Positions 673-23,236 of a DNA stretch of 64,000 bases are shown here, piece by piece. How positions within the stretch are numbered: position 1 is the first letter of the stretch; each line of letters starts with the position of its first letter. This stretch comes from Candidatus Bathyarchaeota archaeon (GTDB taxonomy: Archaea > Thermoproteota > Bathyarchaeia > 40CM-2-53-6): assembly GCA_963733055.1 (NCBI GenBank), contig CAVTBR010000001.1, positions 64,001 to 128,000 on the forward strand. Reading direction: 5' to 3'. The position numbers and the translations under genes were made by a program. Below the pieces are notes generated by a model that was given only the letters and a program-made list of their open reading frames with translations, did no database searches and was not told where the DNA came from.

Positions 673-765
673 TGGTGGGCCCGCCCGGATTTGAACCGGG
701 GATCTTCGCCGGTCTCACTCAGGAGATGTGAGGGCGACGTCTTGGCCAGGCTGGACCACGAGCCC
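673..765 (-). tRNA. tRNA-Val(CAC) with 15-nt intron at canonical 37/38 (712-726), CCA encoded
   Basis: Cloverleaf GGGCTCG...CGGGCCC-ACCA; anticodon stem TCGCC/GGCGA; T loop TTCAAAT; BHB helix CTCA/TGAG with CAT and ACC bulges. Confidence 0.95.
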
Positions 766-927: not shown

Positions 928-1956
928 GTGCAAGCCGTAATTATCCAAGGGAAAGGAACGGTTCAGATTCAGAACCTCCCTACCCCTGCGATAAGTTCCG
1001 ACGAGATTCTCGTGTCAATGCGAGCGTGCGGGATCTGTGGGACTGATATCGAGAAGGTTCATGGCGAGCATATTACACCGCCAATTCTCGGACACGAAGT
1101 GGCCGGGGTAGTCGAGAGGGTTGGAACAGAGGTCCAAGAATTCGCTGTTGGTGACCGGGTTGTAGTACATCATCACGTATCGTGCAGCCACTGCTATTTC
1201 TGTAAGAATGGTCTCGAAACGCTTTGCGAGGAATATCCGAAAAGCAACCTCGACCCTTGCGGGTTTGCTGAGTATTTCAGGGTTCCAAAGGCACTTATGA
1301 AAGGCGGAACCGTGCACAAGTTGTCCGATTCCATGAGTTTTGAGGAAGGGTCACAGGCGGAACCCACTGCATGTTGCATCAGGGCGCTCCGTAAGTCAGG
1401 GGTATCGGCTGGGAATAGTGTCGCGATTTATGGTGTGGGCCCGGTTGGTCTGACCCATGTACAACTTCTGAAGTGTTTCGGGGGTGGACCTGTGTATGCA
1501 ATCGATGTGATCAAGAAGCGTAGGGAGTTCGCCACTAAGTTGGGCGCGGATTCGGCATTTGATCCTATGACAGACGATGTCCTTAATGCAATTTCCCATT
1601 TGACTGGAGGCCTTGGGGTCGATTACGCGATTGTTGCAACCGCCAACTTGAAAGCATTAGAATCAGCGTTTACCACAGTTCGTAAGGGTGGGACGGTTCT
1701 TCTGTTCGGTGCTCCTACACGGGGCGCATTGATGTCATTAGACATGAGTAAGATGTTTCTCCGAGAGGTGCGCTTTCAATCGAGTTACTCAACGTCCGAA
1801 ACTGAAATGCGAATGGCATTGCAACTAATCGAGAACAAACGTGTGAAACCATCCGTGACTATTACAGATAGGTTCCCTCTCTCTCGAGCAATAGAAGCGC
1901 TTGGGCTCGCGGACAAAGCCAGTGAGGCTGTCAAGATAGTAGTTGAGAATGAATGA
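928..1956 (+). CDS. Zn-dependent MDR dehydrogenase (sorbitol/threonine dehydrogenase-like)
   Basis: CGTD, GHE, CxxCxxCxxxxxxxC, GVGPVG motifs. Confidence 0.92.
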   Translation: MQAVIIQGKGTVQIQNLPTPAISSDEILVSMRACGICGTDIEKVHGEHITPPILGHEVAGVVERVGTEVQEFAVGDRVVVHHHVSCSHCYFCKNGLETLCEEYPKSNLDPCGFAEYFRVPKALMKGGTVHKLSDSMSFEEGSQAEPTACCIRALRKSGVSAGNSVAIYGVGPVGLTHVQLLKCFGGGPVYAIDVIKKRREFATKLGADSAFDPMTDDVLNAISHLTGGLGVDYAIVATANLKALESAFTTVRKGGTVLLFGAPTRGALMSLDMSKMFLREVRFQSSYSTSETEMRMALQLIENKRVKPSVTITDRFPLSRAIEALGLADKASEAVKIVVENE

Positions 1957-2017: not shown

Positions 2018-3080
2018 ATGGCAAATAGTATGCTCGCAGTTAGGTTCTACGAACCCGGCGTCCTCAAAGTGGAACAGGTACCCGTTCCTGAACCAGAGCC
2101 GGGAGAGTTGATTGTGAAAAGCGCGGTTGCGTTGACCTGCGGAACAGACGTTAAGATGTACAAACGCGGGCATCTGCTCGCCAAACCACCCCAAATCATG
2201 GGACATGAATTCGCCGGAACAGTGTCCGCGGTAGGAAAGGATGTCGCAAACTTTAGCGTTGGAATGAGAGTGGTCGCAGCAAACTCAGCGCCTTGCAATC
2301 AATGCTTCTACTGCCTCTTGCACCAACCCAACCTATGCGAGCATTTGAATGAAAGCTTAATTGGGTTCACCTGGCCGGGAACATACGCTGAGTACGTGAG
2401 GATTCCGGCGAGAATAGTTCGGCAAAACACGTTTCAAGTGCCGGATAGTGTGCCACTTGAGAGCGTAGCGAGTCTAGAACCTCTGGCGTGCGTAGTTCAT
2501 GGCTGGGATCTAGCCAAAGGGTTCCCTGCTGGAGGAACGGCAGTAATCATCGGTGGTGGACCAATCGGCCTCCTTCATGCCCAACTCGCGCGCCTCAACG
2601 GTGCACGTCATGTGGCATTGTGTGACGTCGTGTCAGATAGGTTGAAGGAGGCGGAGGGAGTAGGAGTGGACGTGACGATAAACTCGTCAACTGAGGATCT
2701 TGTAGCGAGGGTCCGTGAACTTACGGAGGGCAAGGGGGCTGACACGGTCGTAGAAGCGGTTGGTCGACGCAGAAACTTGGGACGCGGCTCCTGGTCTAGC
2801 CAGAAAGGGCGGGACCGTCTTGCTATTCGGAGGTTGCGCATCTGGAACCACCGCTTCGTTCGAAGCCGAGAAGATTCACTATGGGGAACTGCACATCCAA
2901 GGCTCATTCCACCACACACCTTCCTCGGTTGAACACGCCTTTCGGCTAATAGTGTCGGGGCGTGTATCGATCAAGCCACTGATTTCCCACGAGATGCCAC
3001 TAGAACGAGCTGAAGAAGCTCTACAACTTATGGGAAGCGGAAAGGCATTGAAAATTGCACTGCGCCCACCGGCAAAATAA
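2018..3080 (+). CDS. Zn-dependent MDR dehydrogenase; +1 frameshift near 2768 (probable sequencing error)
   Basis: CGTD, GHE, 4-Cys Zn site, GGGPIG; C-terminus 'ETWDAAPGLARKGGTVLLFGG...KALKIAL' is in the second frame. Confidence 0.88.
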
Positions 3081-3118: not shown

Positions 3119-4285
3119 TTAGAGTAATCCTTCTGGCTCCTCTAGGTTACGTTTCACGTCCCTGAGGAACTTCGTGGCTGGGACGCCGTCGATAATCCGA
3201 TGATCGAAAACTAATGTCAATAGTGTCGATGGTCTCGCGGATACTTGACTTCCATTAGCGAATGGTTTGTAAGCTATCCGGCCGAGCCCGAGAATTGCAC
3301 ATTGGGGCGGGTTTATGACTGGTGCGAATGATTCGATGTCGAACCCACCGAGGTTGGTTACGGTGAATGTGCCGCCGGTCAGGTTCTCGATTGTTAGCCG
3401 ATTCTCACTGGCTTTCTTAGCGAGCTCCTCAATAGTCGAGCTAACCTCCCTTAGAGATAGTTTGTCAGCATTTCTGACGACCGGCGCCACTAAGCCCTGT
3501 TCGGTGTGTATCGCTACCGCGACGTTGACATCTGAGTAAGTTGTAACTTCGTCGCCTTCTATTGTTGAGTTGACATCATGGTGATCACCCAAAGCTTTTG
3601 CAACCGCCTTTACTCCGAAGGCCGTAAACCCAACGTGGCTCTGCTTTTCTTTCATCGCCATTAACTTCGTGGCGTCCGCTTCGACGGTGATTGTAACCGG
3701 GACGACGGTTCTCGCACTAAACGAGAGCCTTTCAGCGACAACCTTTCGGACGCCGGCAAGTTTCGTCTTCTTCATTATGGCCGGTTGGGGAATTCTTGAG
3801 ATCGTTTGGGGGGCCTGCGAGGAAGGGTCACCCTGTTTTGCGGCGAGGATGTCCTCCCGAGTTATTCGGCCCCCGGGGCCAGTTCCCTTTAGGGAGGTCA
3901 AGTCGAGACCGTATTCCTGGGCCAACCGGCGTGCGGCGGGGGATGCTACTACTCGGTCTGAGAGGGGTCCATGACTTGGCGTGGTTGAAGATGGTTCTGG
4001 TCTCGCTTGCTCGGTTCTAGCGGGCGACACTTGCCGAGTTGTTGTTGATCCAGGTTCTCCGATGATTGCGATTGGCTCGGCAACTTGGATGTCGGTCCCG
4101 ACGGTTGCTAGGATCTTGGTCAAGGGTCCGGTGTCGGGGGCTTCAACTTCGAAGGTGGTTTTCTCTCCTTCGACAACGAGTATGGGTTCCCCTTTCCTAA
4201 CCAACTCGCCTTCTTTCTTCAGCCATTCAACGATCTTGCCGGATTGCATTCCGGGATCGAGGCGCGGCATTACAACTTCGGTCAA
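3119..4285 (-). CDS. Dihydrolipoamide acyltransferase E2 of acetoin/2-oxoacid dehydrogenase complex
   Basis: Lipoyl domain (VEGEKT), peripheral-subunit-binding domain (ASPAARRLA...GTGPGGRI), catalytic DHRIIDG. Confidence 0.95.
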   Translation of the reverse strand: MTEVVMPRLDPGMQSGKIVEWLKKEGELVRKGEPILVVEGEKTTFEVEAPDTGPLTKILATVGTDIQVAEPIAIIGEPGSTTTRQVSPARTEQARPEPSSTTPSHGPLSDRVVASPAARRLAQEYGLDLTSLKGTGPGGRITREDILAAKQGDPSSQAPQTISRIPQPAIMKKTKLAGVRKVVAERLSFSARTVVPVTITVEADATKLMAMKEKQSHVGFTAFGVKAVAKALGDHHDVNSTIEGDEVTTYSDVNVAVAIHTEQGLVAPVVRNADKLSLREVSSTIEELAKKASENRLTIENLTGGTFTVTNLGGFDIESFAPVINPPQCAILGLGRIAYKPFANGSQVSARPSTLLTLVFDHRIIDGVPATKFLRDVKRNLEEPEGLL

Positions 4286-4291
4286 GATGGA

Positions 4292-5278
4292 TCACTTGCC
4301 CAGTAGGGTTTGGACGGCATGGATGACGCTTTCAGCGTTTGGCATGTATTGTTGCTCGAGGGGTGGGGAGAATGGGATTGGCATGTCTGGGCACGCGACT
4401 CGCGTAATTGGTGCGTCTAAATAGTCGAACGCGGTCTCGGTGATTGAAGCCGATATCTCCGCACCCACGCCACCTCTCTTTACATCGTCGGACGCGATAA
4501 CCAGTCTGGAAGTTCGCTTGACTGACTCAACGATCGTTTCAAGGTCGAGCGGCTGGATGGTTCTCACGTCTATGACTTCGGCTGAGATGCCCTTATCATC
4601 TAGTTTCTTCGCTGCTGCTAGGGATTCACCTACCATTCTCGAAACGCCTACGATCGTGACGTCGTCTCCTTTCTTTTTCACGGCTGCTTTTCCTAGAGGA
4701 GTTAGGTACTCCTCCTCGGGGACCGGTCCCTTTGTTCGGTAGAGTAGCCCACTCTCCACGAAGAGGACTGGGTTGGGATCTCGGATTGCTGACTTTAGCA
4801 GACCTTTAGCGTCGCTTGGGTCTGCGGGCAACGCCACTTTCAACCCCGGAGCCTGCAGAAACCAAGCGGGGGTGAATTGTGAGTGTTGCGATCCGTGTTG
4901 TCGGCCGAGGCTGTATTGGGTTCGCAAGACCATCGGAACCTGAAGCTGGCCTCCGCTCATGAAACGCATTTTTGCGGCTTGCGTAGACAATTGATCCATG
5001 CAAATCGGGAGGAAATCCATGTACATGATCTCCGCTACAGGCCTCATACCCGCCAGCGCCAAACCTACTGCCGCTCCAGTGATGGCGGCCTCGGAGATTG
5101 GGGTGTCTCTAACACGTTCGGGCCCGAATTCGTCGAGCAAACCCCTAGTAACCTTGTAGACACCGTTGAATACGCCGATTTCTTCCCCTAAGAGTATGAC
5201 GTTCGGATCTCGGATCATCTCTTCGCGGAGCGCTTCACGGAGGGCGTCGGCATATGTGAGTTCCTTCATCCGTATCAC
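4292..5278 (-). CDS. TPP-dependent acetoin/pyruvate dehydrogenase E1 beta (probable start ATG 5269)
   Basis: 'ERVRDTPISE', 'GMRPVAEIMYMDF', 'DYLDAPITRV'. Confidence 0.95.
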   Translation of the reverse strand: MIRMKELTYADALREALREEMIRDPNVILLGEEIGVFNGVYKVTRGLLDEFGPERVRDTPISEAAITGAAVGLALAGMRPVAEIMYMDFLPICMDQLSTQAAKMRFMSGGQLQVPMVLRTQYSLGRQHGSQHSQFTPAWFLQAPGLKVALPADPSDAKGLLKSAIRDPNPVLFVESGLLYRTKGPVPEEEYLTPLGKAAVKKKGDDVTIVGVSRMVGESLAAAKKLDDKGISAEVIDVRTIQPLDLETIVESVKRTSRLVIASDDVKRGGVGAEISASITETAFDYLDAPITRVACPDMPIPFSPPLEQQYMPNAESVIHAVQTLLGK

Positions 5279-6294
5279 TTTGAGTAGACGTAGTTTCCGA
5301 TCTCGCTGAATGGTAACGGTGAACCTTGCATGGCGAACTTAACCGAGTCTTCGATTTCCTGTTGCGTTGCCCTGTCGACTTCTGCAACTTCCGCAGTTGT
5401 TATTATCTTCTGGTCTTGGAGACGCTTCTTGAATGTAAGAATGGGATCGCGTTCGAGCCATTTCGCGACTTCTTCTTTGGGGCGGTACTCTCCTTTGTCA
5501 TAAACGCCGTGGCCTTTCATCTTGTAAGTTAGGCATTCAAGGAACGTTGGGGTAGAGTCTCTGCGAGCTTTTTCGGCTGCTGACTTGGTCGCGGCGTATA
5601 CCGTCACAACATCATTTCCGTTGACAACTGTCGTTTCTATTCCGTAGGAGCGGGCTCGCTCGGCGATGCTTGGGCTTGATACGCTCTTCTTTACGTTGGT
5701 AGACATTCCGTACTGATTGTTCTCGCAGAACAGTAGAACAGGTAGCTTCCAAAGGGCGATGAGGTTTACGCCCTCGTGGAACTCGCCCGTGTTGCAGGCG
5801 CCGTCGCCGAAGAATGTGGCCGCAATCTGTTTCGTCTTCCTTTGCTTGAGGCCGAGTCCAATCCCCGCAGCAATTGGTATTCCGCTACCGACTATAGCTG
5901 TGGCGTAAATGGAGCCAGTTTTAGGGTAGATTGCAACGTGCATCGAGCCGCCTAACCCTTTGCAGTTACCAGTTGATTTTCCAAAGAGTTCTGCCATGCA
6001 GAGGTTGGATGGTACGTCCTTGGCCAAAGCGTGGCCGTGGCCACGGTAGGTGGTTACGGTTAGATCATTGGGCTGAAGAGCCATCATCGCGCCTGTCGCA
6101 ATCGCTTCCTGGCCTAGGTACAGGTGAGATGGTCCTATCAATAATCCTTTGACGATGAATAGTTCTTCGACTTTCTCCTCGAACTTTCTAATAATGAGCA
6201 TCTTCCTGAGCATTTCACGCAACAGGTCTTTCGTTAGACCGTACTTTGCGTAGTCGTTTTGCGGTACTTCTTGTACTTCGGTTATGGTCGCCAT
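5275..6294 (-). CDS. TPP-dependent acetoin/pyruvate dehydrogenase E1 alpha
   Basis: 'HLYLGQEA', 'TYRGHGH', 'KGLGGSMH', TPP motif GDGA-x-ENN. Confidence 0.95.
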   Translation of the reverse strand: MATITEVQEVPQNDYAKYGLTKDLLREMLRKMLIIRKFEEKVEELFIVKGLLIGPSHLYLGQEAIATGAMMALQPNDLTVTTYRGHGHALAKDVPSNLCMAELFGKSTGNCKGLGGSMHVAIYPKTGSIYATAIVGSGIPIAAGIGLGLKQRKTKQIAATFFGDGACNTGEFHEGVNLIALWKLPVLLFCENNQYGMSTNVKKSVSSPSIAERARSYGIETTVVNGNDVVTVYAATKSAAEKARRDSTPTFLECLTYKMKGHGVYDKGEYRPKEEVAKWLERDPILTFKKRLQDQKIITTAEVAEVDRATQQEIEDSVKFAMQGSPLPFSEIGNYVYSK

Positions 6295-6407
6295 TTCTAT
6301 CTCAGCTGGTCAATATTTGCGGGCTGGTTCTTTAGCCATTCTCCGTTTCGGTTCGTTCAATCAATTTCAAGTTCGTGGATGGAACTCATTCTTGGCAGAT
6401 GTTCGTC

Positions 6408-7970
6408 CTATGCCCCGGCGGCTCGGAACATCGGCTGCACGAGACCTTCTTCCACCATCTCTAGCGAGTGCTTGTACACTTTGGACCACTGGGCGTACAA
6501 TTTCAGATATTTACCATGGGTGGTCTGGTTGGGTTCGAATGTTCGCTCCCATTTGACCATGCCCTTCGCGGTTTCTTTCAGGTTCGGAAATATTCCGACG
6601 CCCACTCCCGCGCATATTGCAGCGCCGAGAGCTGTGGATTCTTTGATGGTTGGAACCTTGACCGTGATTCCGAACACGTCTGATAGTATTTGGGGCCACA
6701 GGAAGCCTTTCGACGCTCCCCCGCAGAATACTACTTGTTTCATTTTTCGATGAGTGAGCGCTTGCAATATTTGCAGGTGACCCAACGCTACGTACGCCGC
6801 GCTCTCTTCAATCGCCCTGACGCATTCCTTCTTGCCAGATGCCTGAGGTTGGTTGATGTCGAATTGTAGGAAGGATGGGGAGGCATGAATCCATCTTCTA
6901 GCGTTCATTATGTCCGAGAAAATTGGAATGACGCCGTTTGACCCAGGTTCAACGTGTTCGGCCTGCCTTTCAAGCAAATAGTACGCATCAACCCCTTCCC
7001 GAGTCGCTATCTCCTTCTCTTGCTCGCAGAATGCGTCCCTGAACCATCGCATTGTCAACCCACATAGGAAACCTATCCCTTCGGTCATCCACATACCTTG
7101 AACTGCATGGCAAAGGGTGCGTAAGCGAATCTTTGGGTCTATGATCGGTTTCTCCGTGACTACTGTTTGTTGCCAGAACGTCCCGCCTATCGTCGCTGAA
7201 TCATACGGTTGAACCGCTGCTATGCCGATTAGGCCAAGCTGTGTGTCTGCCCCGCCTACCACTACGGGAGTTCTCGATTTGAAACCAGTCTCGGCGGCGG
7301 CCTCAGCGGTGACCTCCCCCAGCACCGTTCCTGGTTCCTTTACTTCCGGGAAAATACCTCTAGGCAAGGAACACCAATCGATGATCTCGTCCGACCAAGT
7401 TCTTTTCGAGAGTTGAAACAGATTTGAGCTTGAGCCAATCGAGGGATCGGTAGCGAATTTCCCTGACAGTTTCTGAAGAATCCAATCGCTTATCATAGTC
7501 ACGTGGGCAGTTTTCTTGAAGATCTCCGGCTCGTGCTTCTTTATCCAAAGGAATCTTGGCGGCGACGTAATCGCCTGCCAATCCCCAGCCCTAGAGTAGA
7601 TCTTCTTTGCTAGTCCTTTCTTGACCATATGAGTAACTTCGTTTCTCGCCCGCGAGTCGACGTTTGGGCATGCCCAGATCTCTTTGCCAGTTTCATCGTA
7701 GAGAACCATGCCCTCGCGCATGCTGGTCGCGCTAATGCCGCGAATTTCATCGGGTCGAATCTTAGCTTTGTCGATCGCCTCGTGTATTGATTCGCAGATA
7801 AGTGCCCAATTTCGTGCGGTCTCAAAGACAAAGGCGCCCGGATATTGCGGTATAGTAGGATGGACCCACTCTCTTGATGCGATGGCGACTTGATGCCCTT
7901 CGGAGTCAAAGATTACACATCTGCCGCTGCCAGTTCCCGCGTCTATTGCGGCTAGATAGTCGCCATTCAT
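6408..7970 (-). CDS. lsrK: Autoinducer-2 kinase (LsrK)-like FGGY kinase
   Basis: LsrK-specific blocks over the full length: DAGTGSG, SMREG, IWACPNVDSRA, TMISDW, GGTFWQQ, GLTMRWFRDAFC, GVIPIFSD, WIHASPSF, C-terminal PMFRAAGA. Confidence 0.85.
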   Translation of the reverse strand: MNGDYLAAIDAGTGSGRCVIFDSEGHQVAIASREWVHPTIPQYPGAFVFETARNWALICESIHEAIDKAKIRPDEIRGISATSMREGMVLYDETGKEIWACPNVDSRARNEVTHMVKKGLAKKIYSRAGDWQAITSPPRFLWIKKHEPEIFKKTAHVTMISDWILQKLSGKFATDPSIGSSSNLFQLSKRTWSDEIIDWCSLPRGIFPEVKEPGTVLGEVTAEAAAETGFKSRTPVVVGGADTQLGLIGIAAVQPYDSATIGGTFWQQTVVTEKPIIDPKIRLRTLCHAVQGMWMTEGIGFLCGLTMRWFRDAFCEQEKEIATREGVDAYYLLERQAEHVEPGSNGVIPIFSDIMNARRWIHASPSFLQFDINQPQASGKKECVRAIEESAAYVALGHLQILQALTHRKMKQVVFCGGASKGFLWPQILSDVFGITVKVPTIKESTALGAAICAGVGVGIFPNLKETAKGMVKWERTFEPNQTTHGKYLKLYAQWSKVYKHSLEMVEEGLVQPMFRAAGA

Positions 7971-7995
7971 GCTATCTCATGCCCGCGAGGAGGGG

Positions 7996-8697
7996 TCATT
8001 TTGCGGAGGGGTGCTGACCATATCTTGTCCGTTTGAAGACCTTCAGATATGCAAGTTCTTTTCTTGTGAACTCCCTAGGTTTCGCAAGAACCATTGAATG
8101 GACCGCCATGTTGGCAACATCTTCCAGCACTATTGCGGTCTCCAATCCTTCTTCAGGTGTCCTCCCTACAACAACCACCCCATGCTTTCTCAGGAGGGCG
8201 GCATCACATTTCTCTAACGCCTTCAGGATTGCAGCTAACTCGACAGGCTCCGTCGTGCCCGGAAGCGAGTACTTCCGTACTAGAGGTACGCTACCCCCAA
8301 GATAGAACGCCTGTTCCGCCGAAACACATGGAATCTCCATGTTGGCGGCGGCAAAAGCGCAAGCCATCGGCGAGTGCGTATGAATTACCGTACTAATTTC
8401 CGGTCGGTTCCGGTGAATGTAGGTATGCATCGCGGTTTCCACGGACGGCCTGAACTTTCCTTGGACAAGCTTGGCGTCGAGGTCCACAATGATGAGATGC
8501 TGAGTGTTGAGCGTGAGTTTGCTGAAACCACTGGGAGTGATTAGAGCGTAGTCTGTGTTAGGGATTCGGTTACTCACGACACCAAATGTTGACGTTACTA
8601 GATGGTTCTCAAAGAGCCCACGAGCTACTTCCACGGTTTTACTTGCGAGACTATCAATGATCTCTTGTTGAACGCCAGGTATGCTGAAGTCGGACGT
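7996..8697 (-). CDS. Class II aldolase/adducin family protein (FucA/AraD/MtnB-like); likely non-canonical ACG start at 8697, first canonical start GTG 8634
   Basis: ITPSG, RPSVETAMH, IHTHS, RKHG metal-binding motifs; SD AGGTGA 6 nt before the in-frame ACG. Confidence 0.88.
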   Translation of the reverse strand, partial: TSDFSIPGVQQEIIDSLASKTVEVARGLFENHLVTSTFGVVSNRIPNTDYALITPSGFSKLTLNTQHLIIVDLDAKLVQGKFRPSVETAMHTYIHRNRPEISTVIHTHSPMACAFAAANMEIPCVSAEQAFYLGGSVPLVRKYSLPGTTEPVELAAILKALEKCDAALLRKHGVVVVGRTPEEGLETAIVLEDVANMAVHSMVLAKPREFTRKELAYLKVFKRTRYGQHPSAK

Positions 8698-8756
8698 CTG
8701 AAGTCACCTGGGTTTTGTGTTGTGCTCTTCCTGTTTGTATTGTCGACGGATGAATG

Positions 8757-9254
8757 TTAAGGGTAGGTGTAGATAGGATTCATAGAGATCGCGTGGCCGC
8801 TGACTGTTTCTGCAACCATCTTCAACACGGGTTCAGTATTCATGTAATAGAATCTGATGTTTTCACCAAGCCTTCCACTCATCATAACATCAACATCATT
8901 CTTCTTGAAGTCTGCGAGTGCCTTTTCAACATCCTCCGCGGGGCTCACTACGGAAACATGGTGCAGCCCTTCTCCCTTCTCTTCTAAGAACTCCTTGTAG
9001 ATACTTGGGCCCTCCAATGGTTGCAAAATTTCGAAGTCGATCGGGTCACAGTGGACTTCCGCCCCAAGCATAGAGTAATTGGCAGGTTTTCCGTGGAGTT
9101 CCTGATGGTGTAGGATTGGGGGTTTGTGTTCGTAAACACTCCAGGGCCCCCACCCGAGAATCTTGTGGTATGCTTCCATCGTTTTTCGCAAATCTTTCAC
9201 AACCACGGCAACTTGAGTAATCTTCATTCCAGACGGAACTGATGTGCCCATCAA
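8757..9254 (-). CDS. VOC family protein (methylmalonyl-CoA epimerase/glyoxalase-like)
   Basis: 'QVAVVVKDL', 'FEILQPLEGPSIYKEFLEEKGEGLHHV'. Confidence 0.9.
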   Translation of the reverse strand: MMGTSVPSGMKITQVAVVVKDLRKTMEAYHKILGWGPWSVYEHKPPILHHQELHGKPANYSMLGAEVHCDPIDFEILQPLEGPSIYKEFLEEKGEGLHHVSVVSPAEDVEKALADFKKNDVDVMMSGRLGENIRFYYMNTEPVLKMVAETVSGHAISMNPIYTYP

Positions 9255-9309: not shown

Positions 9310-10179
9310 TTGACGCCGTTCAGCGAGGACCAGTACTTGAAACGCGGAATCGCAGTCACAGGACGAGCAAACCCTAAGCTCATCGAAAGACTCGCCGTAG
9401 AGGCCGAAAGGGCCGAATACGATTATTTCTTGGTAACCGACCATTTCATGCTTCCAAACTCGAACAATCACATCGACGTTTGGTCCTTCCTCCCCTACCT
9501 TGCGGCGAAAACGGCCAAGATTAGACTGGGAACGGCAGTCACACCCCTCCCATTACGCCCGCCCGGCATGCTCGCAAAGATGGCCGCAACGACAGATTAT
9601 CTCTCCGGCGGCCGTTTGATAGTCGGGGTGGGGTTTGGGTGGTACCGGCCCGAATTTGAAGGGTATTCGAAATGGCATGAGAATAAGGAAAGGATAGCGT
9701 TCAGCATTGAAGCGCTGCGATTAATGAAACGCCTATGGACTGAACCGGGACTCGTGGATTTTCATGGCAAATATGTCCGCGCAAATAACGCAGCTCTAGA
9801 GCCTAAACCAATCCAGAAACCTTATCCACCAATATGGTGGGGCGGACACTTGGCAGTCTCGCTTCATACAGCGGGAAAGTATGCTGATGGATGGATGCCA
9901 ATAGGCCCTAGATGGTTTGACGAAAGCTACCCCAAACCTAACGAATACTCGCAAATGCGAAAGGTAATTCTCGACGAGTTGACCAAGCGCAAATATCCCG
10001 AAGAGAAATTTGCATTCACGAACCTCATCAACCGGACAGACATACAAACGCTCCGAAAGGATGTTGAACAGTACGTGGATGCGGGCATGAACCATTTCAC
10101 ATTGGGCGAGAAAGCGGAGGATGAAAAATGCTTGAAAGAGATAGCCCTCGTCGCGAAAGAAATAGGAGGCTCCTTCTAG
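9310..10179 (+). CDS. LLM-class flavin/F420-dependent oxidoreductase
   Basis: 'TDHF', 'IRLGTAVTPLPLRPP', 'SGGRLIVGVGFGW', 'PKPIQKPYPPIWWGG'. Confidence 0.9.
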   Translation: MTPFSEDQYLKRGIAVTGRANPKLIERLAVEAERAEYDYFLVTDHFMLPNSNNHIDVWSFLPYLAAKTAKIRLGTAVTPLPLRPPGMLAKMAATTDYLSGGRLIVGVGFGWYRPEFEGYSKWHENKERIAFSIEALRLMKRLWTEPGLVDFHGKYVRANNAALEPKPIQKPYPPIWWGGHLAVSLHTAGKYADGWMPIGPRWFDESYPKPNEYSQMRKVILDELTKRKYPEEKFAFTNLINRTDIQTLRKDVEQYVDAGMNHFTLGEKAEDEKCLKEIALVAKEIGGSF

Positions 10180-10183
10180 GAAA

Positions 10184-11071
10184 TTGGCAAAACGCTCAGG
10201 CTGGAAGCTATCATTCATTCCTTACTACATGACGTCCCCAGCCGTTTGGACCTCACCCTCAACAGATGAAGCGATCCGTGTAATCTCGAAAGCAGGGTAT
10301 CAAGGCGTCGAATGGATGCTTGGTCAGCATTTCCGGAATACCAAGCAACTAAGGAACTTGGTCAACAAGACGAGGCGGCGCGGTCTTGCGGTCTCGAACA
10401 TCATGTGCTGGCAAGACCTCGTAACAAAGAGCCGGAAAGTCAGGAATAGACGAGTGAAGCTCCTGAATTGCATGCTGAGTGAGGCCAGCGGATTGTCCGT
10501 CCCTTTGATGAATGTCTTCACAGGGCCGATGACCTGGAATCCTGGCTACAATAGGATTGGTCGAGAAATCTCTGAAGGTCAAGCTTGGAAGGTTGTTATC
10601 GACTCATTTGCGGATCTTGTTGACTCGGCTGAGAAGAATCATGTCGTCGTCACAGTTGAGCCTGTATTCGGAATGCTCGTCCACGACTATTACACTGTAA
10701 AGGAGTTCCTCAGCTACTTCGATTCCAAATACTTGGGCGTGAACCTCGACCCATCCCACTTCGTCGTGTACGGAAACGACCCCGTATGGGCGGCGAAAAT
10801 GCTCGGCGAGAAAGTCCGACACGTTCATGTGAAGGATGCATTTGGGAAACCGGGCGGGCTTGGGGAAACTTTCGTCTTTCCGTTTCTTGGCGAGGGCGTT
10901 GTCGATTGGAAGGAGTTCTTTCTCGCTCTTCGCAAATCGCGATACCGTGGCTATCTCTCTCTCGAATTCGAGAATGATAGTTACCTGAACAATGTTTGCG
11001 ATGGGAAATGGTCAAAAGCAGCAGTAGAACTCAGGAATCGAGTTGAGAAGTTCCTGCCAAAACGGGCATAA
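10184..11071 (+). CDS. Sugar phosphate isomerase/epimerase (xylose-isomerase-like TIM barrel)
   Basis: 'GYQGVE', 'VEP', 'NLDPSHF', 'HVHVKD', 'LSLEFE'. Confidence 0.88.
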   Translation: MAKRSGWKLSFIPYYMTSPAVWTSPSTDEAIRVISKAGYQGVEWMLGQHFRNTKQLRNLVNKTRRRGLAVSNIMCWQDLVTKSRKVRNRRVKLLNCMLSEASGLSVPLMNVFTGPMTWNPGYNRIGREISEGQAWKVVIDSFADLVDSAEKNHVVVTVEPVFGMLVHDYYTVKEFLSYFDSKYLGVNLDPSHFVVYGNDPVWAAKMLGEKVRHVHVKDAFGKPGGLGETFVFPFLGEGVVDWKEFFLALRKSRYRGYLSLEFENDSYLNNVCDGKWSKAAVELRNRVEKFLPKRA

Positions 11072-11401: not shown

Positions 11402-11590
11402 GACTGGCCTTAGAGCGATGTTCCGCCATAAAAGCGACCTGTCACACCGCGTAATTTAATCAGCTTGCGTTCTGTGCAATTCTGAAATGGGCGACCAAGA
11501 AATTCTTGGAGAGCGTCCGTTCGAGTTGGTATGCCAACCCGAAGCGGCCAATGAGTAGGCCGTTGGGGATTCTGGTGTCGTTTAGCTTGC

Positions 11591-11667
11591 TTATTCTGGG
11601 GATATCTCCATTTGTCCTCTGATTAAGTCGAGTCCTTTGCCTTTCAAGTTGAAGTAGCGTGCTAGAT
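11591..11667 (-). repeat. Truncated duplicate of the last 77 bp of the APC permease gene (13419-13495)
   Basis: Manual alignment 67/77 identical; encodes LARYFNLKGKGLDLIRGQMEISPE* vs LARYFYFKGKGLDLIKGQMEIPPE*. Confidence 0.9.
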
Positions 11668-11834
11668 CAGGAAGCTGGAGCCTAATAGTCCTACAATGAA
11701 ACTGAAATCCGCAGTGGGTAAAGAGCTTGTTAGGGGATGCTTTCCCTAAAGAGCAGACACCTACCTGTGTGCGCAAACCTTCGATGACTTACCCTATGTT
11801 GAAAAACATCATATCTCGGTTTTGGTTCATATGA

Positions 11835-12725
11835 ATGCGTGAAGCGGAGTTGTCTGACCGCGTCATAGAGATGCCACCTGAGTGGGGAGGAGTCGTTCCC
11901 ACACGAGTTTTCTTAGATGAGGGTAAACGAATCGTGGACGAAGCCACGAGAGTAGGCATACCGTTAAGGTTGCTGGGTGGCGTTGCGATCCGGTATCATT
12001 GTATGGATTACCTAGACTTCGCGAAGAAACTTGGGCGTCAGGTTGGCGAGGGAGAGCAGGAGTACACCGATCTTGATTATATTTCCTACATGAAATACCG
12101 TGACAATGCAAAGAAACTCTTCGAAGCCTTAGGTTACTCAAGAAGGAAGACGACGTTATCAAGCTCCGCTACTCAACGGCAGATCTTCTTCCATCCTAAG
12201 GGATGGTTCCATGTGGACGTATTCTTCGACAAATTACTAGCCGCAAACCACCCCATAGATTTCAGAAAACGCCTTGAACTCGACTCACCCACCGCCACTC
12301 CCACCGATCTTCTCCTTGAGAAGGCGCAAATTGTTTTCCCGGGCGAGAAGGATGTCAAAGACATGATGCTACTTCTGCGCACTCACGAAATTTCCGCGCG
12401 CGAGGAAGAGAATAAGATAAGCGGGAAATTCATCGCACAGCTTCTATCTTCCGACTGGGGATTCTGGTACACACTTACAAATAATCTCCGCCAATTGAAA
12501 GAATACTCAACCACAATCGAACCACTGTCTACTGACGACAAGGCGGACCTAGCTTCGAAAGCAGACATTCTTTTGAAAATGATTGAGGATGAACCGAAGA
12601 GTACAGGTTGGAAGATGCGATCAGCCATCGGAACCAAAAAGAAGTGGTATAATCCCGTAGAGACCACACAAACGGTCGGAGAATTTGGCCTCTGGAAACT
12701 GAAAGAAAAAACCCAAGACTCTTAA
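11835..12725 (+). CDS. Uncharacterised nucleotidyltransferase-fold protein
   Basis: 'LRLLGGVAI' followed by 'YTDLDY' (hG[GS]...DxD) and 'VDVFFD'. Confidence 0.65.
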   Translation: MREAELSDRVIEMPPEWGGVVPTRVFLDEGKRIVDEATRVGIPLRLLGGVAIRYHCMDYLDFAKKLGRQVGEGEQEYTDLDYISYMKYRDNAKKLFEALGYSRRKTTLSSSATQRQIFFHPKGWFHVDVFFDKLLAANHPIDFRKRLELDSPTATPTDLLLEKAQIVFPGEKDVKDMMLLLRTHEISAREEENKISGKFIAQLLSSDWGFWYTLTNNLRQLKEYSTTIEPLSTDDKADLASKADILLKMIEDEPKSTGWKMRSAIGTKKKWYNPVETTQTVGEFGLWKLKEKTQDS

Positions 12726-12759
12726 GCGCAAAACGTGACTTGACCTCGAAACATCTTTA

Positions 12760-13143
12760 GTGATTAACGCCTTCAGGAAGGAAGCCCATGTCTTTCTTGA
12801 GAGTTTACGTCACCGTAAGTGGGCGCTGAGCTATTTAGTCGTCTTAACTTGTGTTAGCACCGTCATCTTCTCGTTTGTAGAGAATCATACCCCATTTGAT
12901 TCGTTTTACTGGACAATTACCGTATTTACAACCGTAGGCTTCGGAGACATAACACCCCACACAATAATTGGGAAGGTACTGTTTCTCTTCGATGCGATCT
13001 CAGGCATAACCACCTACATCTACCTAATCACCAGTTGGCAAACCTCAGTAATCGAAGCGAGACTTGAACGGAAACTATGGCAAATCGCCGACGCCGACTT
13101 CAAAGAACAGACACGAAAATCTAAGTCAAAATTCCAGAATTAG
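12760..13143 (+). CDS. KcsA-like 2-TM potassium channel
   Basis: Selectivity filter TTVGFGD between two TM helices. Confidence 0.9.
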   Translation: MINAFRKEAHVFLESLRHRKWALSYLVVLTCVSTVIFSFVENHTPFDSFYWTITVFTTVGFGDITPHTIIGKVLFLFDAISGITTYIYLITSWQTSVIEARLERKLWQIADADFKEQTRKSKSKFQN

Positions 13144-13418: not shown

Positions 13419-14996
13419 TTATTCTGGCGGTATCTCCATTTGTCCTTTGATTAAGTCTAGGCCTTTGCCCTTGAAGTAGAAGTAGCGCGCGAGATAGATG
13501 AGTACAGCGGACCCGAATATCACGACTAGCAGAACGCTTGATCCTAAAGTCGAGGGCCCAATGGCAGGATTTGTTACAGACCAGTAGAATGTGGTTCCCA
13601 TGCCTATGATTGTTAGAACGCCAAAGATTGGTAATAACCATCGACCGCCGATGAGACCCTTGGCGAATTCTTTCTTCCAGAATGGAAGGACAATGGCCGA
13701 TATTCCTACCAAAATCCAGACGACGGCCCAAATCGTGACCACATTGAGCAGTTGTCCGATGTATGTCGTGTATATGGCGATGTATGTTAGGATGACGGAT
13801 ATTACGAAGGTCAACCCGATCGCTTTCAACGGGACGTGGAGTCTATCGTTCACATCCGCGAAAACGGTTGGAAGTACGCGGTCGAAGGAGAATGCGAACA
13901 CGTACCTCGAGATGCAAATGGCGAGGCCTGCGGCCCACCAGAAGTTGAACAATAGGAAGCCGATCTCGACGAAACTCGAAAGGTATGGGTTGCTTAGGAC
14001 TGCTGGGATGAAAACGGGCGACCATGGAGAAACTCCTAAGGAGAGTTTACCGGCGCCGAATAACCCAAACACTGCTTGCATGAATGGGTAGCTTTCCGCG
14101 TTCGTTATGAAGTAGAGGCCTGTTACATCGAGAACTCCGCAGATCAAGAGTGCAACCATCACACCCCATAGCATTCCATTCTTCACATTCCTCACTTCGC
14201 CTGAGATGTATACGGAATAATTGAATCCGTTGAATAGCAAGACGCCGAATGGAATGGCTAGGAACGTGGCGGTTTGATTCACAGGAACGAATGCCATACC
14301 CGCCGAAGCGGCTTGAGATACTACCCCATTAACCGTCATACTTCCACCCGTTAAATTACTCAACCCTGTCGCAAATGATGAACTTGTTGCGGTCGCGAAG
14401 GCGCCGATGAAGATGAAAGAGGCGATGAAGATTATAGCAGCCAAAACAAGCATAATACGACTGTAAACTCTTGGCGTGCAACTGGCAATAACAATTCCAA
14501 CAATTATCGTGAGCAGTGTCCCAGCGAATAGATTTGTGGTGCTACTCGCGAAGTTCTGTCCCCATGAAATTAGTCCCGGATTATTCCAGATGTATCCCAA
14601 GGCCACGCCTACGTCTGGCATAACGACCGCGGGTTCCGTTACAGATGCACTTGCTAGAAGCGCAATGAATGAAATGAACATAGCCCAACCCCCAACAAAT
14701 CCCAAAATTGGATTCAGCGTCCGCCCAAGCCACACATAGTCCCCTCCTGATCTTGGCATCTGAACCGAAAAGATGTAGTATACTACGGCGAGGGGGATCA
14801 TGAACAGGAACCCAATAATCGCGGAAACTGTAAAGTCCGCTCCAGGACCGTTAGGGGCTACGTAGCCGATTTGAGAGGACATCCCGAATAGGGTCGGCCC
14901 GGTTACGGCCAGACTCAATATAGTCGCATCATACCACGTGAAGGATCTGACTAATCCGGTTGCTTCCCGTAGGAATACCTTCTGCTTAGTAGACAA
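13419..14996 (-). CDS. APC family (amino acid/polyamine) permease
   Basis: 'FLREATGLVR', 'MPRSGGDYVW', 'SRYVFAFSFDRVLP', about 12 TM. Confidence 0.9.
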   Translation of the reverse strand: MSTKQKVFLREATGLVRSFTWYDATILSLAVTGPTLFGMSSQIGYVAPNGPGADFTVSAIIGFLFMIPLAVVYYIFSVQMPRSGGDYVWLGRTLNPILGFVGGWAMFISFIALLASASVTEPAVVMPDVGVALGYIWNNPGLISWGQNFASSTTNLFAGTLLTIIVGIVIASCTPRVYSRIMLVLAAIIFIASFIFIGAFATATSSSFATGLSNLTGGSMTVNGVVSQAASAGMAFVPVNQTATFLAIPFGVLLFNGFNYSVYISGEVRNVKNGMLWGVMVALLICGVLDVTGLYFITNAESYPFMQAVFGLFGAGKLSLGVSPWSPVFIPAVLSNPYLSSFVEIGFLLFNFWWAAGLAICISRYVFAFSFDRVLPTVFADVNDRLHVPLKAIGLTFVISVILTYIAIYTTYIGQLLNVVTIWAVVWILVGISAIVLPFWKKEFAKGLIGGRWLLPIFGVLTIIGMGTTFYWSVTNPAIGPSTLGSSVLLVVIFGSAVLIYLARYFYFKGKGLDLIKGQMEIPPE

Positions 14997-15208: not shown

Positions 15209-15970
15209 GTGATTTCCCACATGAAGCTGAAAGATAGGATAACAATCGTTACCGGGGCTTCGCGCGGAATCGGCAGCGCCATTGCCCGAAGATTCGCGGT
15301 TGAAGGTTCCAAGGTTGTCATCAACTACCACAATTCGGAGAAGGAGGCTTCTCGGTTAGTGGACGAGATAAGAAGGAACGACGGAGAGGCTATTGCGGTA
15401 AGAGCCGACGTATCTAAGCCAGATGAAGTGAGACATCTTGTAAAGGAAACGGTCGACGCCTACGGGAGAGTGGATATCCTAGTGAACAACGCGGGAGTGA
15501 TGTTTCAGAATACGTTCCTTGACGCTACCGAGGAAATCTGGGACAAAACTATCGACATCAATCTGAAAGGGGCTTACCTTTGCTCGAAAGAGGTAGCCCC
15601 AATCATGTTGAAACAGAAGAAGGGGAAGATAATCAACATCTCATCCAACTCTGGGACTTATCATCCCTCCGCTCTCCGGTTCGTGGAATACGTAGTCTCA
15701 AAAGCGGGAATGAATGGATTAACTCGAGCGCTCGCGCTGAAACTCGGCCCTTATGTTAACGTCAACGCAATCTGCCCAGGTTGGATCAAGACCGAAATGG
15801 TCGGAGACATAGACCCAGAAATCCAACGGATGATCCTTGAGGAAACGGCGTTGAAGAGGTACGGGACTCCGGACGAGGTAGCGAATGCTGCACTCTATCT
15901 GGCTTCTGACGAGTCCAACTTCGTTACTGGAGAGCTCCACATGATCACTGGCGGTCGTGGAATGCACTAA
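15209..15970 (+). CDS. SDR family oxidoreductase (FabG-like)
   Basis: TGASRGIG, NNAG, YxxxK (YVVSK), NAICPGWIKT. Confidence 0.92.
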   Translation: MISHMKLKDRITIVTGASRGIGSAIARRFAVEGSKVVINYHNSEKEASRLVDEIRRNDGEAIAVRADVSKPDEVRHLVKETVDAYGRVDILVNNAGVMFQNTFLDATEEIWDKTIDINLKGAYLCSKEVAPIMLKQKKGKIINISSNSGTYHPSALRFVEYVVSKAGMNGLTRALALKLGPYVNVNAICPGWIKTEMVGDIDPEIQRMILEETALKRYGTPDEVANAALYLASDESNFVTGELHMITGGRGMH

Positions 15971-22450: not shown

Positions 22451-23236
22451 TTGTCTGAACCATTCTGGAAAACGGCTATTTCGAAAGTTGAACCGAACAA
22501 GATTGTAGTTCGAGGTTACAACCTAATGGACTTAGTCGGCAAATACAGTTACGCGGGCTTGACCTACTTGCTTTGGCGCGGGGAGCTTCCCACGGAGGAG
22601 CAATCCCGCATGATGGACGCGCTCTTGGGTGTCTGCCTTGAACATAGCCTCAACTCGCCGTCTGTTGATGCTACACGTTTTGTGGCCTCGTGTGGGGTTC
22701 CATTGCAGTCAGCAGTTTCCGCTGGGGTTTCAGCCATTGGAGACTGGCACGGAGGAGCAATCGAGCAGGCAGCAAAACTCCTTCAGGATGGAGTCTCAAA
22801 AGCGAGAGATAGCAAAGGTTCGCAGCGGGATACAGCTGAAGCCATTCTCCAGAGATACAGTGAGCGTAAAGAGAAAGTGCCTGGATACGGCCACCCCACC
22901 CACACTCATGATCCACGGACAAAGAAACTTCTTGAAATTGCAGACCAGACTCGACTGCGTGGATCACACGTCGAACTTGCCGAGAACATCGAATCGTTAA
23001 CCGAGAGGTTCTTTCACAACCATCTGATCTTGAACGTGGATGGTTGCATAGCGGCAATAATTTCTGACATGGGGTTTGACTGGAGATTGGGCAAGGGGTT
23101 CTTCATCGTGAGTCGCACTCCAGGATTGGTAGCTCACGCCTACGAGCAGATGTACTTCGATAAACCCTACAAATCGGCAAGTTGGAATGAGATTGTGTAC
23201 ACCGGCCCCGCTGAGAGACGGGCGCCGGGACAGTAA
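22451..23236 (+). CDS. Citryl-CoA lyase (citrate-synthase small-domain family)
   Basis: 'WKTAISK', 'IGDWHGGAIE', 'PGYGH', 'DPR', 'NVDG', 'RTPGLVAH'. Confidence 0.88.
   Translation: MSEPFWKTAISKVEPNKIVVRGYNLMDLVGKYSYAGLTYLLWRGELPTEEQSRMMDALLGVCLEHSLNSPSVDATRFVASCGVPLQSAVSAGVSAIGDWHGGAIEQAAKLLQDGVSKARDSKGSQRDTAEAILQRYSERKEKVPGYGHPTHTHDPRTKKLLEIADQTRLRGSHVELAENIESLTERFFHNHLILNVDGCIAAIISDMGFDWRLGKGFFIVSRTPGLVAHAYEQMYFDKPYKSASWNEIVYTGPAERRAPGQ

Follow-up and report, generated by a model that had tools for sequence, protein, structure and literature searches.

The uptake and destruction of autoinducer-2 (AI-2), an interspecies signal, by LsrK, LsrG and LsrF are known from bacteria, and to our knowledge LsrF has one known substrate, the isomer of phosphorylated 4,5-dihydroxy-2,3-pentanedione (phospho-DPD) that LsrG makes. 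Here we analyze an LsrK-family kinase and its neighbors in an archaeon from peat soil. The window, by which we mean the whole 64-kb stretch of DNA under study (G000:C1:64001-128000), belongs to a genome (G000) of 2.88 Mb and 96% completeness that scores 1452 bits against the archaeal small-subunit (SSU) model, and the nearest public record of the kinase, 93% identical, comes from a Bathyarchaeia metagenome-assembled genome (MAG). An earlier note on this DNA listed six co-oriented genes at 3119-9254. All six are present on the minus strand with Pfam support, and they encode in order a VOC protein, a class II aldolase-family protein, the FGGY kinase, and the E1alpha, E1beta and E2 subunits of a lipoamide dehydrogenase complex that uses thiamine pyrophosphate (TPP). 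The same note supposed that this complex takes the place of LsrG and LsrF. We tentatively favor a different account, one of two modules that lie as neighbors, the first of which would be an archaeal version of the Lsr pathway with the VOC protein and the aldolase as analogues of LsrG and LsrF. E1/E2, in our best reading, is a facultative companion of that module and not a replacement for either Lsr enzyme.

Compared with the Lsr system of E. coli and Salmonella (LsrACDB, LsrK, LsrG, LsrF and LsrR), the locus is alike in its full-length LsrK-family kinase, and related archaeal loci carry a true LsrF. It differs in having an APC permease in place of the ATP-binding cassette (ABC) importer, and a VOC protein and class II aldolase where LsrG and LsrF would be expected, in an archaeal host in which LuxS was not found. 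The lsr loci of the Bacillus cereus group also have a small non-ABM metal-fold protein between lsrK and lsrF (a cupin in Bacillus locus L013, a VOC protein in archaeal locus L011). However, Bacillus keeps LsrR and, in 4/5 loci, LsrACDB, its small protein is a cupin and not a VOC, and it has neither the class II aldolase nor E1/E2. The lipoamide complex resembles AcoABC(L) of Pelobacter carbinolicus and Bacillus subtilis in its heteromeric E1alpha/E1beta of the pyruvate dehydrogenase (PDH)/acetoin type with a lipoyl-bearing E2 and in its clustering with alcohol dehydrogenases of a type that converts diols to ketols; its E1alpha is below the PDH cutoffs. Unlike AcoABC(L), the window cluster lacks an E3, is joined in some lineages to an LsrK-type kinase block, and has its nearest bacterial homologues in sugar phosphotransferase system (PTS) or ABC clusters. 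DrdK/DrdI/DrdA, FucK/FucA and RhaB/RhaD employ a class II metal aldolase that splits a methyl-terminated ketose-1-phosphate into dihydroxyacetone phosphate (DHAP) and a small aldehyde, and the window aldolase has a Glu of the DrdA-base kind. The kinases differ, DrdK being MtnK-type and the window kinase LsrK-type, with fuculokinase and rhamnulokinase models far below cutoff; the window aldolase reaches no family cutoff. Haloferax volcanii oadhAB3 (HVO_0669/0668), likened here by description and not by sequence, is another archaeal E1 pair related to acetoin dehydrogenase. It belongs to a different phylum, and the accessible part of its description identifies no substrate, excludes pyruvate and 2-oxoglutarate, and reports no association with a kinase (PMC8305020).

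A limited literature search returned no description of an archaeal LsrK, an Lsr-type pathway in archaea or this gene set, and supplementary tables of metagenome quorum-sensing surveys may list archaeal lsrK. One survey of cold seeps tallies 'AI-2 genes' in archaeal MAGs and, in the portion of the article available, offers no analysis of this sort; 'LsrK' occurs in it once, in the methods, and 'Bathyarchae' nowhere (PMC12781772).

The kinase is a member of the LsrK family

The window kinase scores 668.7 bits against the NCBIfam model 'autoinducer-2 kinase' (NF008187), 140 bits above the cutoff of 528. The next-best family, XylB, is matched at 220.5 against a cutoff of 380.25, and the protein falls far below the cutoffs of the xylulokinase, fuculokinase, ribulokinase and rhamnulokinase models. 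Residues 5-519 align to residues 23-539 of the E. coli LsrK structure 5YA0 (514 bits), and identity to E. coli LsrK is 45.6% by tblastn. Four blocks singled out in the earlier note as specific to LsrK (SMREG, IWACxNVD, GGTFWQQ and GLTMRWFRDAFC) are indeed shared by the window kinase and E. coli LsrK, and they occur in 0/11 non-LsrK FGGY kinases examined.

A maximum-likelihood tree of 31 kinases agrees with the family assignment. Twenty of the 31 form an LsrK-family clade with support of 100/100, and the window kinase lies inside it. Within this clade, eleven archaeal kinases including that of the window group together (92/92), beside and not within the clade of E. coli and Bacillus LsrK (99/93). 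Membership of the LsrK family, for which the earlier note had named profile and phylogeny as checks, thus holds; relative to the characterized LsrKs, the archaeal clade is one branch of a polytomy. By these comparisons the window protein is an LsrK-family member and possibly a strict functional orthologue. In one MAG labelled Nitrososphaerota, the kinase open reading frame (ORF; L011:9980-11311) ends at 443 aa, 81% of full length, probably because of an assembly frameshift.

Lsr partners of the kinase were not found in the archaeal genome

The claim that lsrF, lsrG, lsrR and lsrABCD are missing from the 64-kb window is confirmed by profile searches. An lsrF or lsrG elsewhere in the genome, which the earlier note regarded as damaging to its proposal, was not found in G000 either. 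The LsrF hidden Markov model (HMM) reaches 179.3 bits at best (cutoff 297), and the LsrG HMM 24.9 bits (cutoff 135) in a generic ABM match on another contig. A housekeeping class I aldolase homologue at C1:1209935 was considered as a hidden LsrF and rejected; at 179 bits it is far below the cutoff, and it is like the equivalent gene in other archaeal genomes. E. coli LsrR, LsrB, LsrC, LsrD and LsrG gave no tblastn match in G000 at E<=1e-3, and LsrA gave only generic ABC ATPase matches of 25-30% identity. LuxS was not found in G000 by a search that was positive in five control genomes.

Other kinase-bearing genomes were searched as well. LsrF is below cutoff in G339, G525, G650 and G583, as in G000, and has no match in G509. 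The LsrG HMM identified no LsrG in 6/6 kinase-bearing archaeal genomes searched, both LsrF-bearing ones included. Used alone as the query, the E. coli LsrG sequence had no match in five archaeal genomes, in a comparison that lacked a positive control. Because LsrG, LsrF, LsrR and the ABC importer were not found, the system fails the definition of an Lsr operon.

The kinase is accompanied by either the aldolase or LsrF

Metagenome contigs were scanned with the VOC protein, which yielded 80 loci at 72-95% identity, and the cluster proteins were mapped on all of them. The kinase is found in 49 loci, the class II aldolase in 40 and LsrF in 14; aldolase and LsrF occur together in 0. Most of the kinase-less loci end within 3 kb of the VOC gene. 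Twenty-one long loci extend 4 kb or more from the VOC gene in each direction; of these, 18 have the kinase, 13 the aldolase, 5 LsrF, and 3 have no kinase. Aldolase or LsrF is present in exactly the 18/18 kinase-bearing long loci, never both, and VOC orthologues (75-95% identity) stand beside the kinase in 18/21.

The LsrF of these loci is a genuine one. In L011 and L017, MAGs labelled Nitrososphaerota, it scores 398 bits (cutoff 297), shares 52% identity with E. coli LsrF and retains the KTYY lysine, the Schiff-base residue of LsrF. True LsrF is present in the related archaeal genomes G658 and G661. The first part of the L011/L017 locus comprises a permease, a TIM-barrel protein, a short-chain dehydrogenase/reductase (SDR), E1alpha, E1beta, E2, a 117-aa ORF and another SDR; then follow a 2-hydroxyacid dehydrogenase, the kinase (60% identical to that of the window), the VOC protein (80%) and LsrF, with the VOC gene between lsrK and lsrF in L011.

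Several further neighbors recur. Orthologues of the F420-type oxidoreductase (60-87%) and of the TIM-barrel protein (55-87%) are found in both aldolase-type and LsrF-type loci. Permease orthologues of 74-94% identity lie directly beside VOC-aldolase-kinase in many loci, and those in LsrF-type loci are 54-70% identical; SDR orthologues (58-89%) are near the VOC gene in most long loci. E1/E2 behaves differently from the VOC protein and the aldolase or LsrF. Its orthologues are beside the kinase in 8/13 aldolase-type long loci, and a more distant E1/E2 (42-45% identity in L011/L017/L223) is found in 1/5 LsrF-type long loci, L223. In all, E1/E2 is near the kinase in 9/18 kinase-bearing long loci, and the other 9 have none. 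The partners that track the kinase are the VOC protein and 'class II aldolase or LsrF', and these are better candidates for the LsrG and LsrF roles than the lipoamide complex.

The VOC protein and the aldolase as candidates for LsrG and LsrF

The VOC protein falls below the methylmalonyl-CoA epimerase equivalog (43.9, cutoff 114.95), its nearest structure (3GM5) has no assigned function, and a database cluster look-up returned generic 'VOC family' clusters only. A fusion search for the VOC domain found 4 proteins of 344-375 aa that contain VOC domains only, none of them with kinase, LsrF or aldolase. It is the most conserved protein of the set, and in LsrF-type loci it lies between or beside the kinase and LsrF. 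Between aldolase-type and LsrF-type loci the VOC proteins share 75-80% identity, which makes a common product probable. Glyoxalase I and other VOC enzymes carry out metal-assisted proton shifts through enediolates, and LsrG performs the corresponding shift without a metal. We propose that the VOC protein is a phospho-DPD isomerase and an LsrG analogue, since loci with LsrK and LsrF, in genomes where LsrG was not found, have the VOC protein beside both, and VOC chemistry fits the step.

The Bacillus cereus group may provide a precedent. Locus L013 has a 135-aa cupin-like ORF (11538-11945, plus strand) between lsrK and lsrF that is not an ABM protein, and E. coli LsrG has no tblastn match in the five Bacillus loci L012-L016 at the thresholds used. 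(The flanks of L012 show oddly contiguous same-frame ORFs; its Pfam annotation was not used and the locus was read by tblastn.) By analogy, the L013 cupin would be a precedent for replacement of LsrG by another small isomerase fold. G339 has no VOC protein, and a small cupin adjoins its kinase operon; at only 29% identity to the Bacillus cupin this is a hint, no more. In the part of their article accessible to us, Quan and Bentley (2012) report that next to lsrK there is consistently a 'sugar phosphate isomerase' (PMC3420918).

The best family and structure matches of the aldolase are AraD, DrdA and FucA. Its top NCBIfam match is an L-ribulose-5-phosphate 4-epimerase subfamily (161, cutoff 251), no family cutoff is reached, and DrdA (6BTD) is its second-best structure match. 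FucA has three His metal ligands, and the window protein retains such ligands (HxH + H) in HTHS and KHG motifs, together with a Glu of the FucA/DrdA type in PSVET. Aligned to 1JDI, it has Glu at the position of AraD Asp76 and Phe at that of Asp120, presumably the catalytic residue of AraD. This Phe led us to reject AraD-type epimerase function for the window protein. DrdA splits 5-deoxyribulose-1-phosphate into DHAP and acetaldehyde, and Glu76 is proposed as its base, according to the accessible portion of that study (PMC6079011). We propose the class II aldolase as a candidate C-C cleaving enzyme in the LsrF position. The strict alternation between aldolase and LsrF argues that both act on the same intermediate.

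The lipoamide complex is not a typical pyruvate dehydrogenase by profile

E1alpha has the TPP motif GDG...NN at residue 163 and is below both PDH E1alpha equivalogs (TIGR03182, 348.4 against 393.85; TIGR03181, 233.6 against 411.35). E1beta passes only the subfamily model NF006667 (384 bits, cutoff 321), and E2, with a DHRIIDG motif at residue 361, reaches no E2 equivalog cutoff; the profile libraries used have no acetoin-specific model. The JGI label on metagenome relatives of E1alpha is 'TPP-dependent pyruvate/acetoin dehydrogenase alpha subunit'. An E3 gene lies at G000:C1:814832-816196 (TIGR01350, 571.7 bits, cutoff 408.8), about 740 kb from the cluster and next to a second E1alpha/E1beta/E2 set. 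G000 also has two genes of the BPL/LplA/LipB family. Two small conserved ORFs, one of 117 aa beside E2 in L011/L017 and one of 159 aa that separates E1beta from E2 in G339, match no Pfam family and nothing meaningful in the PDB. L137 (G559) and L140 (G509:C5) have no E2 between the second dehydrogenase gene (ADH2) and E1beta, which would make them E1-only versions of the module.

In bacteria, the closest homologues of E1alpha, at 43-47% identity, lie in sugar clusters and not in 2-oxoacid contexts in 4/4 regions inspected, taken from 657 plasmid records with a match. These homologues suggest that this E1 lineage may act on sugar-derived ketols in general. The four regions (L251, L252, L253 and L254) have E1alpha-E1beta-E2(-E3) on Rhizobium, Nitratireductor and Brevibacillus plasmids, with a PTS (glucitol-type or other) or an ABC transporter and, in some, E3. 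A SorC-type regulator occurs in 3/4, a 440-aa 'NAD(P)H-dependent oxidoreductase' in 3/4 and a class II fructose-bisphosphate (FBP) aldolase in 1/4.

The kinase block and the lipoamide complex are distributed separately

The kinase is rare, being found in 2/401 genomes of a phylum sample (G000 included). Within the family, it occurs in 12/59 genomes at E<=1e-80, 10 of them above the model cutoff. By genus, leaving G000 aside, it is present in 10/22 genomes of the window's genus, 1/10 of a sister genus and 0/26 of three others. E1alpha-like genes, on the other hand, are found in 96/301 genomes of the class at E<=1e-60 and in 12/12 sampled genomes of the window's genus, where ten are full-length orthologues of 73-82% identity, one is partial (93%) and one is only 46% identical.

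We mapped the window proteins on 20 regions from related genomes. In the kinase-bearing same-genus genomes G525, G583, G650, G655 and G648, aldolase and kinase are directly upstream of E1alpha, as in the window; the VOC gene is upstream of the aldolase gene, with the exception of G648, where it follows E2. No kinase was found in G634, G598, G619, G541 and G559 of the same genus (completeness 92, 100, 95, 93 and 89%). All five keep E1alpha-E1beta, 4/5 keep E2 (not G559) and 4/5 have the pair of alcohol dehydrogenase (ADH) genes nearby (not G541). Most related genomes, whether or not they have the kinase, keep ADH1 beside E2-E1beta-E1alpha. Since genomes where the kinase was not found retain E1/E2 with the ADHs, the complex and the two dehydrogenases form a stable older unit; the accessory block consists of VOC-aldolase-kinase and the permease.

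Other lineages combine these genes differently. In G339, from another family of the phylum, the genes for a CUT1 ABC transporter, the aldolase, the kinase, ADH1 and ADH2 form an operon that is divergent from E1alpha-E1beta-ORF159-E2. In G509 the kinase lies on a 10-kb contig with an SDR, a VOC protein, a PF04199 'cyclase', DhaK, DhaL, a class II FBP aldolase and genes for a xylulokinase-like protein and a TIM-barrel protein, and E1/E2 is on a separate contig. Kinase and E1/E2 are thus adjacent in three different arrangements (the window type, G339 and L011/L017/L223) that involve two diverged E1/E2 lineages. As the earlier note had anticipated, an LsrK-type kinase does occur beside E1/E2 in an archaeon that lacks LsrF and LsrG. 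Its synteny prediction is borne out in part, with at least three such arrangements but E1/E2 near the kinase in only 9/18 long loci. The idea of a TPP complex in place of LsrG/LsrF is not supported, given the five genomes without a detected kinase that keep E1alpha/E1beta, the 9/18 count, and the presence of both E1/E2 and LsrF in L011/L017.

Layout of the locus and neighboring genes

The features of the cluster are collected in Table 1. The intergenic distances along VOC-aldolase-kinase-E1alpha-E1beta-E2 are 122, 25, 113, -4 and 6 nt. The 113-nt gap between kinase and E1alpha has an AT-rich TATA-like box about 20-26 nt 5' of the E1alpha start and no T-run terminator, a sequence that would allow separate transcription.

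Table 1. Genes of the cluster and its flanks, in window coordinates
Feature	Position	Strand	Support
VOC protein (Glyoxalase_4), 165 aa	8757..9254	-	Pfam PF13669, 48 bits
Class II aldolase-family protein, 212 aa	7996..8634	-	Pfam PF00596, 143 bits
LsrK-family FGGY kinase, 520 aa	6408..7970	-	FGGY_N + FGGY_C; NF008187, 668.7 bits
E1alpha, TPP/lipoamide dehydrogenase complex, 339 aa	5275..6294	-	E1_dh, PF00676, 263 bits
E1beta, 328 aa	4292..5278	-	Transket_pyr + Transketolase_C (PF02779 + PF02780)
E2 dihydrolipoamide acyltransferase, 388 aa	3119..4285	-	lipoyl + E3-binding + 2-oxoacid_dh catalytic domains
ADH1, Zn-dependent alcohol/polyol dehydrogenase, convergent with E2	928..1956	+	ADH_N + ADH_zinc_N
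ADH2, second Zn-dependent dehydrogenase, split in two frames	2018..3080	+	ORFs 2018-2932 and 2760-3080
Luciferase-like (F420-type) oxidoreductase, divergent from VOC	9310..10179	+	PF00296, 157 bits; TIGR03619, 162.2 against 166.9
Xylose-isomerase-like TIM-barrel protein	10184..11071	+	PF01261, 124 bits; weak IolE and sugar-epimerase matches
APC-superfamily permease, candidate substrate importer	13419..14996	-	AA_permease_2
SDR	15209..15970	+	adh_short_C2, 222 bits

The split of ADH2 is a frameshift or an assembly indel. Its first ORF covers ADH_N and positions 1-70 of the ADH_zinc_N profile, and the overlapping second ORF, in another frame, covers ADH_zinc_N positions 69-128. As expected if the tail is out of frame, tblastn in relatives spans only 82-89% of the first ORF. 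Just beyond the ADH1 end of the cluster is a tRNA-Gly(CCC) gene (673-765, minus strand), whose length of 93 nt suggests an intron. Between the TIM-barrel and permease genes, 11835-13143 (plus strand) contains a 296-aa ORF without family and a 127-aa potassium-channel-like gene with two transmembrane segments. This region looks like a local insertion, since the corresponding gap is about 600 nt in L171, the closest metagenome locus.

Further along the window, an ORF of 261 aa at 22451-23236 (plus strand) matches only the C-terminal half of citrate synthase (profile positions 164-349) and is possibly truncated. An Lhr-type helicase at 24662-27519 (plus strand) is spread over three overlapping ORFs (DEAD + Helicase_C; WH_Lhr + DEAD_assoc; the DEAD_assoc C-terminus), so that the gene is either broken or has assembly indels. 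Elsewhere in the genome there are two further pairs of FGGY kinase and class II aldolase, at G000:C2:187300-189360 and G000:C1:191100-198520, the latter close to an APC permease gene and a transketolase-like homologue of E1beta. G000 has more than 20 APC permease paralogues.

Proposed pathway and alternative explanations

In the account we favor, the first module takes in the LsrK-family kinase, the VOC protein and the aldolase as well as genes nearby for the APC permease, the SDR, the F420-type oxidoreductase and the TIM-barrel protein. Its distribution is patchy, and its target would be phosphorylated DPD or a C5 diketo- or keto-sugar that closely resembles it and ends in a methyl group. The permease would import the compound and the kinase would phosphorylate its terminal CH2OH. 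The VOC protein, using a metal, would then shift the carbonyl, converting a 2,3-dione-4-ol into a 2,4-dione-3-ol as LsrG does, and the aldolase would hold the DHAP-like end on its metal and break the C-C bond, as LsrF does. Cleavage might be direct, either hydrolytic or thiolytic, or might come after the SDR or an ADH has reduced the distal keto group to give 5-deoxypentulose-1-phosphate. Because this reduced LsrG product is a DrdA-type substrate, a kinase-VOC-SDR/ADH-aldolase route would be chemically straightforward. The expected products are DHAP and a C2 unit such as acetaldehyde or acetate.

The second module, E1alpha-E1beta-E2 with the two Zn-dehydrogenases, is acetoin-dehydrogenase-like and would use the distant E3. 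It would perhaps form acetyl-CoA, either from the C2 or ketol product or from a deoxypentulose that is reduced and unphosphorylated. E1/E2 is found more often with the aldolase, whose version of the pathway would end in an aldehyde or ketol, than with LsrF, whose own product is acetyl-CoA. The core does not need E1/E2, given that half of the kinase loci have none and that the complex occurs without the kinase. Still, the repeated juxtaposition with the kinase, in three arrangements and two diverged lineages, argues for a metabolic link. A bolder claim, that soil and peat archaea (Bathyarchaeia and the Nitrososphaerota-labelled MAGs) possess a complete, largely non-orthologous pathway for AI-2 uptake and destruction in which E1/E2 oxidizes the C2 aldehyde or ketol, we consider unlikely.

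Several points weigh against the two-module account. In the tree, the archaeal kinases, the E. coli and Bacillus clade and four further bacterial branches form a polytomy, and as the archaeal kinases are not nested among the characterized LsrKs, a shifted substrate is possible. Three long VOC loci (L214, L215 and L216) have no kinase, and in L215 the VOC gene is a few kb from E1/E2. Because the surveyed loci come from related organisms and are not independent, the counts describe patterns and are not statistics. Every enzyme step is inferred, and no enzyme activity is known for the archaeal members. A neutral sugar-like molecule would be an unusual cargo for an APC permease, and the polyol dehydrogenases and TIM-barrel isomerase, along with DhaK/DhaL, class II FBP aldolase and a xylulokinase-like gene in some loci, look like ordinary polyol or ketose catabolism. 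Finally, three arrangements of kinase and E1/E2 exceed what chance predicts, and the role of E1/E2 may be more central than we allow.

The alternative that survives best, although we doubt it, is that the kinase has moved off DPD and that the locus is an ordinary catabolic island for polyols or (deoxy)ketoses. The Zn-ADH, SDR or F420 enzyme would oxidize an imported polyol, the TIM-barrel protein would isomerize the product, and the kinase would make a ketose phosphate for the aldolase to cleave, as do FucA, RhaD and DrdA, or to epimerize; the VOC protein and E1/E2 would handle side products, for instance lactaldehyde, hydroxyacetone or acetoin. An FGGY kinase with a class II aldolase is the classical fuculose/rhamnulose module. 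Two more such pairs in the genome (C2:187-189 kb and C1:192-196 kb), the aldolase's resemblance to AraD, DrdA and FucA, and the separation of the archaeal kinase clade from characterized LsrKs all fit this explanation. So do the CUT1-type sugar ABC transporter in G339 and, in some loci, DhaK/DhaL, class II FBP aldolase, the xylulokinase-like gene and a second TIM-barrel protein. However, the kinase exceeds the AI-2-kinase cutoff by 140 bits when other sugar-kinase models stay far below theirs, and a genuine LsrF accompanies the same kinase clade and the same VOC protein (75-80%) in LsrF-type loci. The strict alternation of aldolase and LsrF likewise argues for one shared intermediate.

Direct cleavage by E1/E2 seems to us rather improbable. 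Here isomerization or reduction of phospho-DPD would give a ketol of the 1-deoxypentulose-5-phosphate type, which the complex would cleave oxidatively to acetyl-CoA and triose phosphate, substituting for LsrF/LsrG. The E1 of acetoin dehydrogenase cleaves methyl alpha-hydroxyketones, and aceE is the gene for the E1 of PDH. That chemistry speaks for the idea, as do the three neighboring arrangements (window type, divergent operons in G339, L011/L017/L223), the sugar-uptake clusters around bacterial E1alpha homologues in 4/4 regions and an E1alpha below the PDH equivalog cutoffs. We also count in its favor that E. coli aceE mutations let strains without the synthase of DXP (1-deoxy-D-xylulose-5-phosphate) survive, as stated in the available part of that paper (PMC3424233). 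Yet E1alpha/E1beta persists in the five same-genus genomes where the kinase was not found, four of them with the Zn-ADH pair, and E1/E2 is near the kinase in only 9/18 loci (8/13 aldolase-type, 1/5 LsrF-type). L011/L017 hold E1/E2 and true LsrF together, so the complex is not there 'instead of' LsrF, and the idea offers no reason why aldolase and LsrF should exclude one another.

It is very improbable that the modules are functionally unrelated and that the kinase block landed by chance beside an acetoin/2,3-butanediol dehydrogenase cluster; each occurs without the other, and the TATA-like box and lack of a T-run terminator in the 113-nt gap allow, without demonstrating, separate transcription, but two diverged E1/E2 lineages lie within a few kb of the kinase in three arrangements, and with a kinase this rare (2/401) and E1alpha-like genes in about a third of class genomes (96/301), repeated chance adjacency is unlikely.

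Taken together, our results lead us back, tentatively, to the two-module account. On our reading, the window system, though not an Lsr operon by definition, works like the Lsr processing pathway with enzymes of other folds. The alternation of aldolase and LsrF is a clean, testable prediction, and the E1/E2 lipoamide complexes in sugar-catabolic clusters are flagged here as a family that extends from archaea to rhizobial and Bacillales plasmids. If the kinase has drifted to another sugar, the locus would be an ordinary catabolic island with a misleading automatic name, a case relevant to counts of 'AI-2 genes' in metagenomes. If DPD is what the kinase acts on, archaea that are abundant in peat and sediment could clear an interspecies signal of bacteria, and the VOC and class II aldolase folds would join the solutions for the LsrG and LsrF steps. 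Should the AI-2 pathway reading be true, these soil and peat archaea would be quenchers or scavengers of the bacterial signal, and the VOC isomerase would be convergent with the ABM-fold LsrG and perhaps with the Bacillus cupin.

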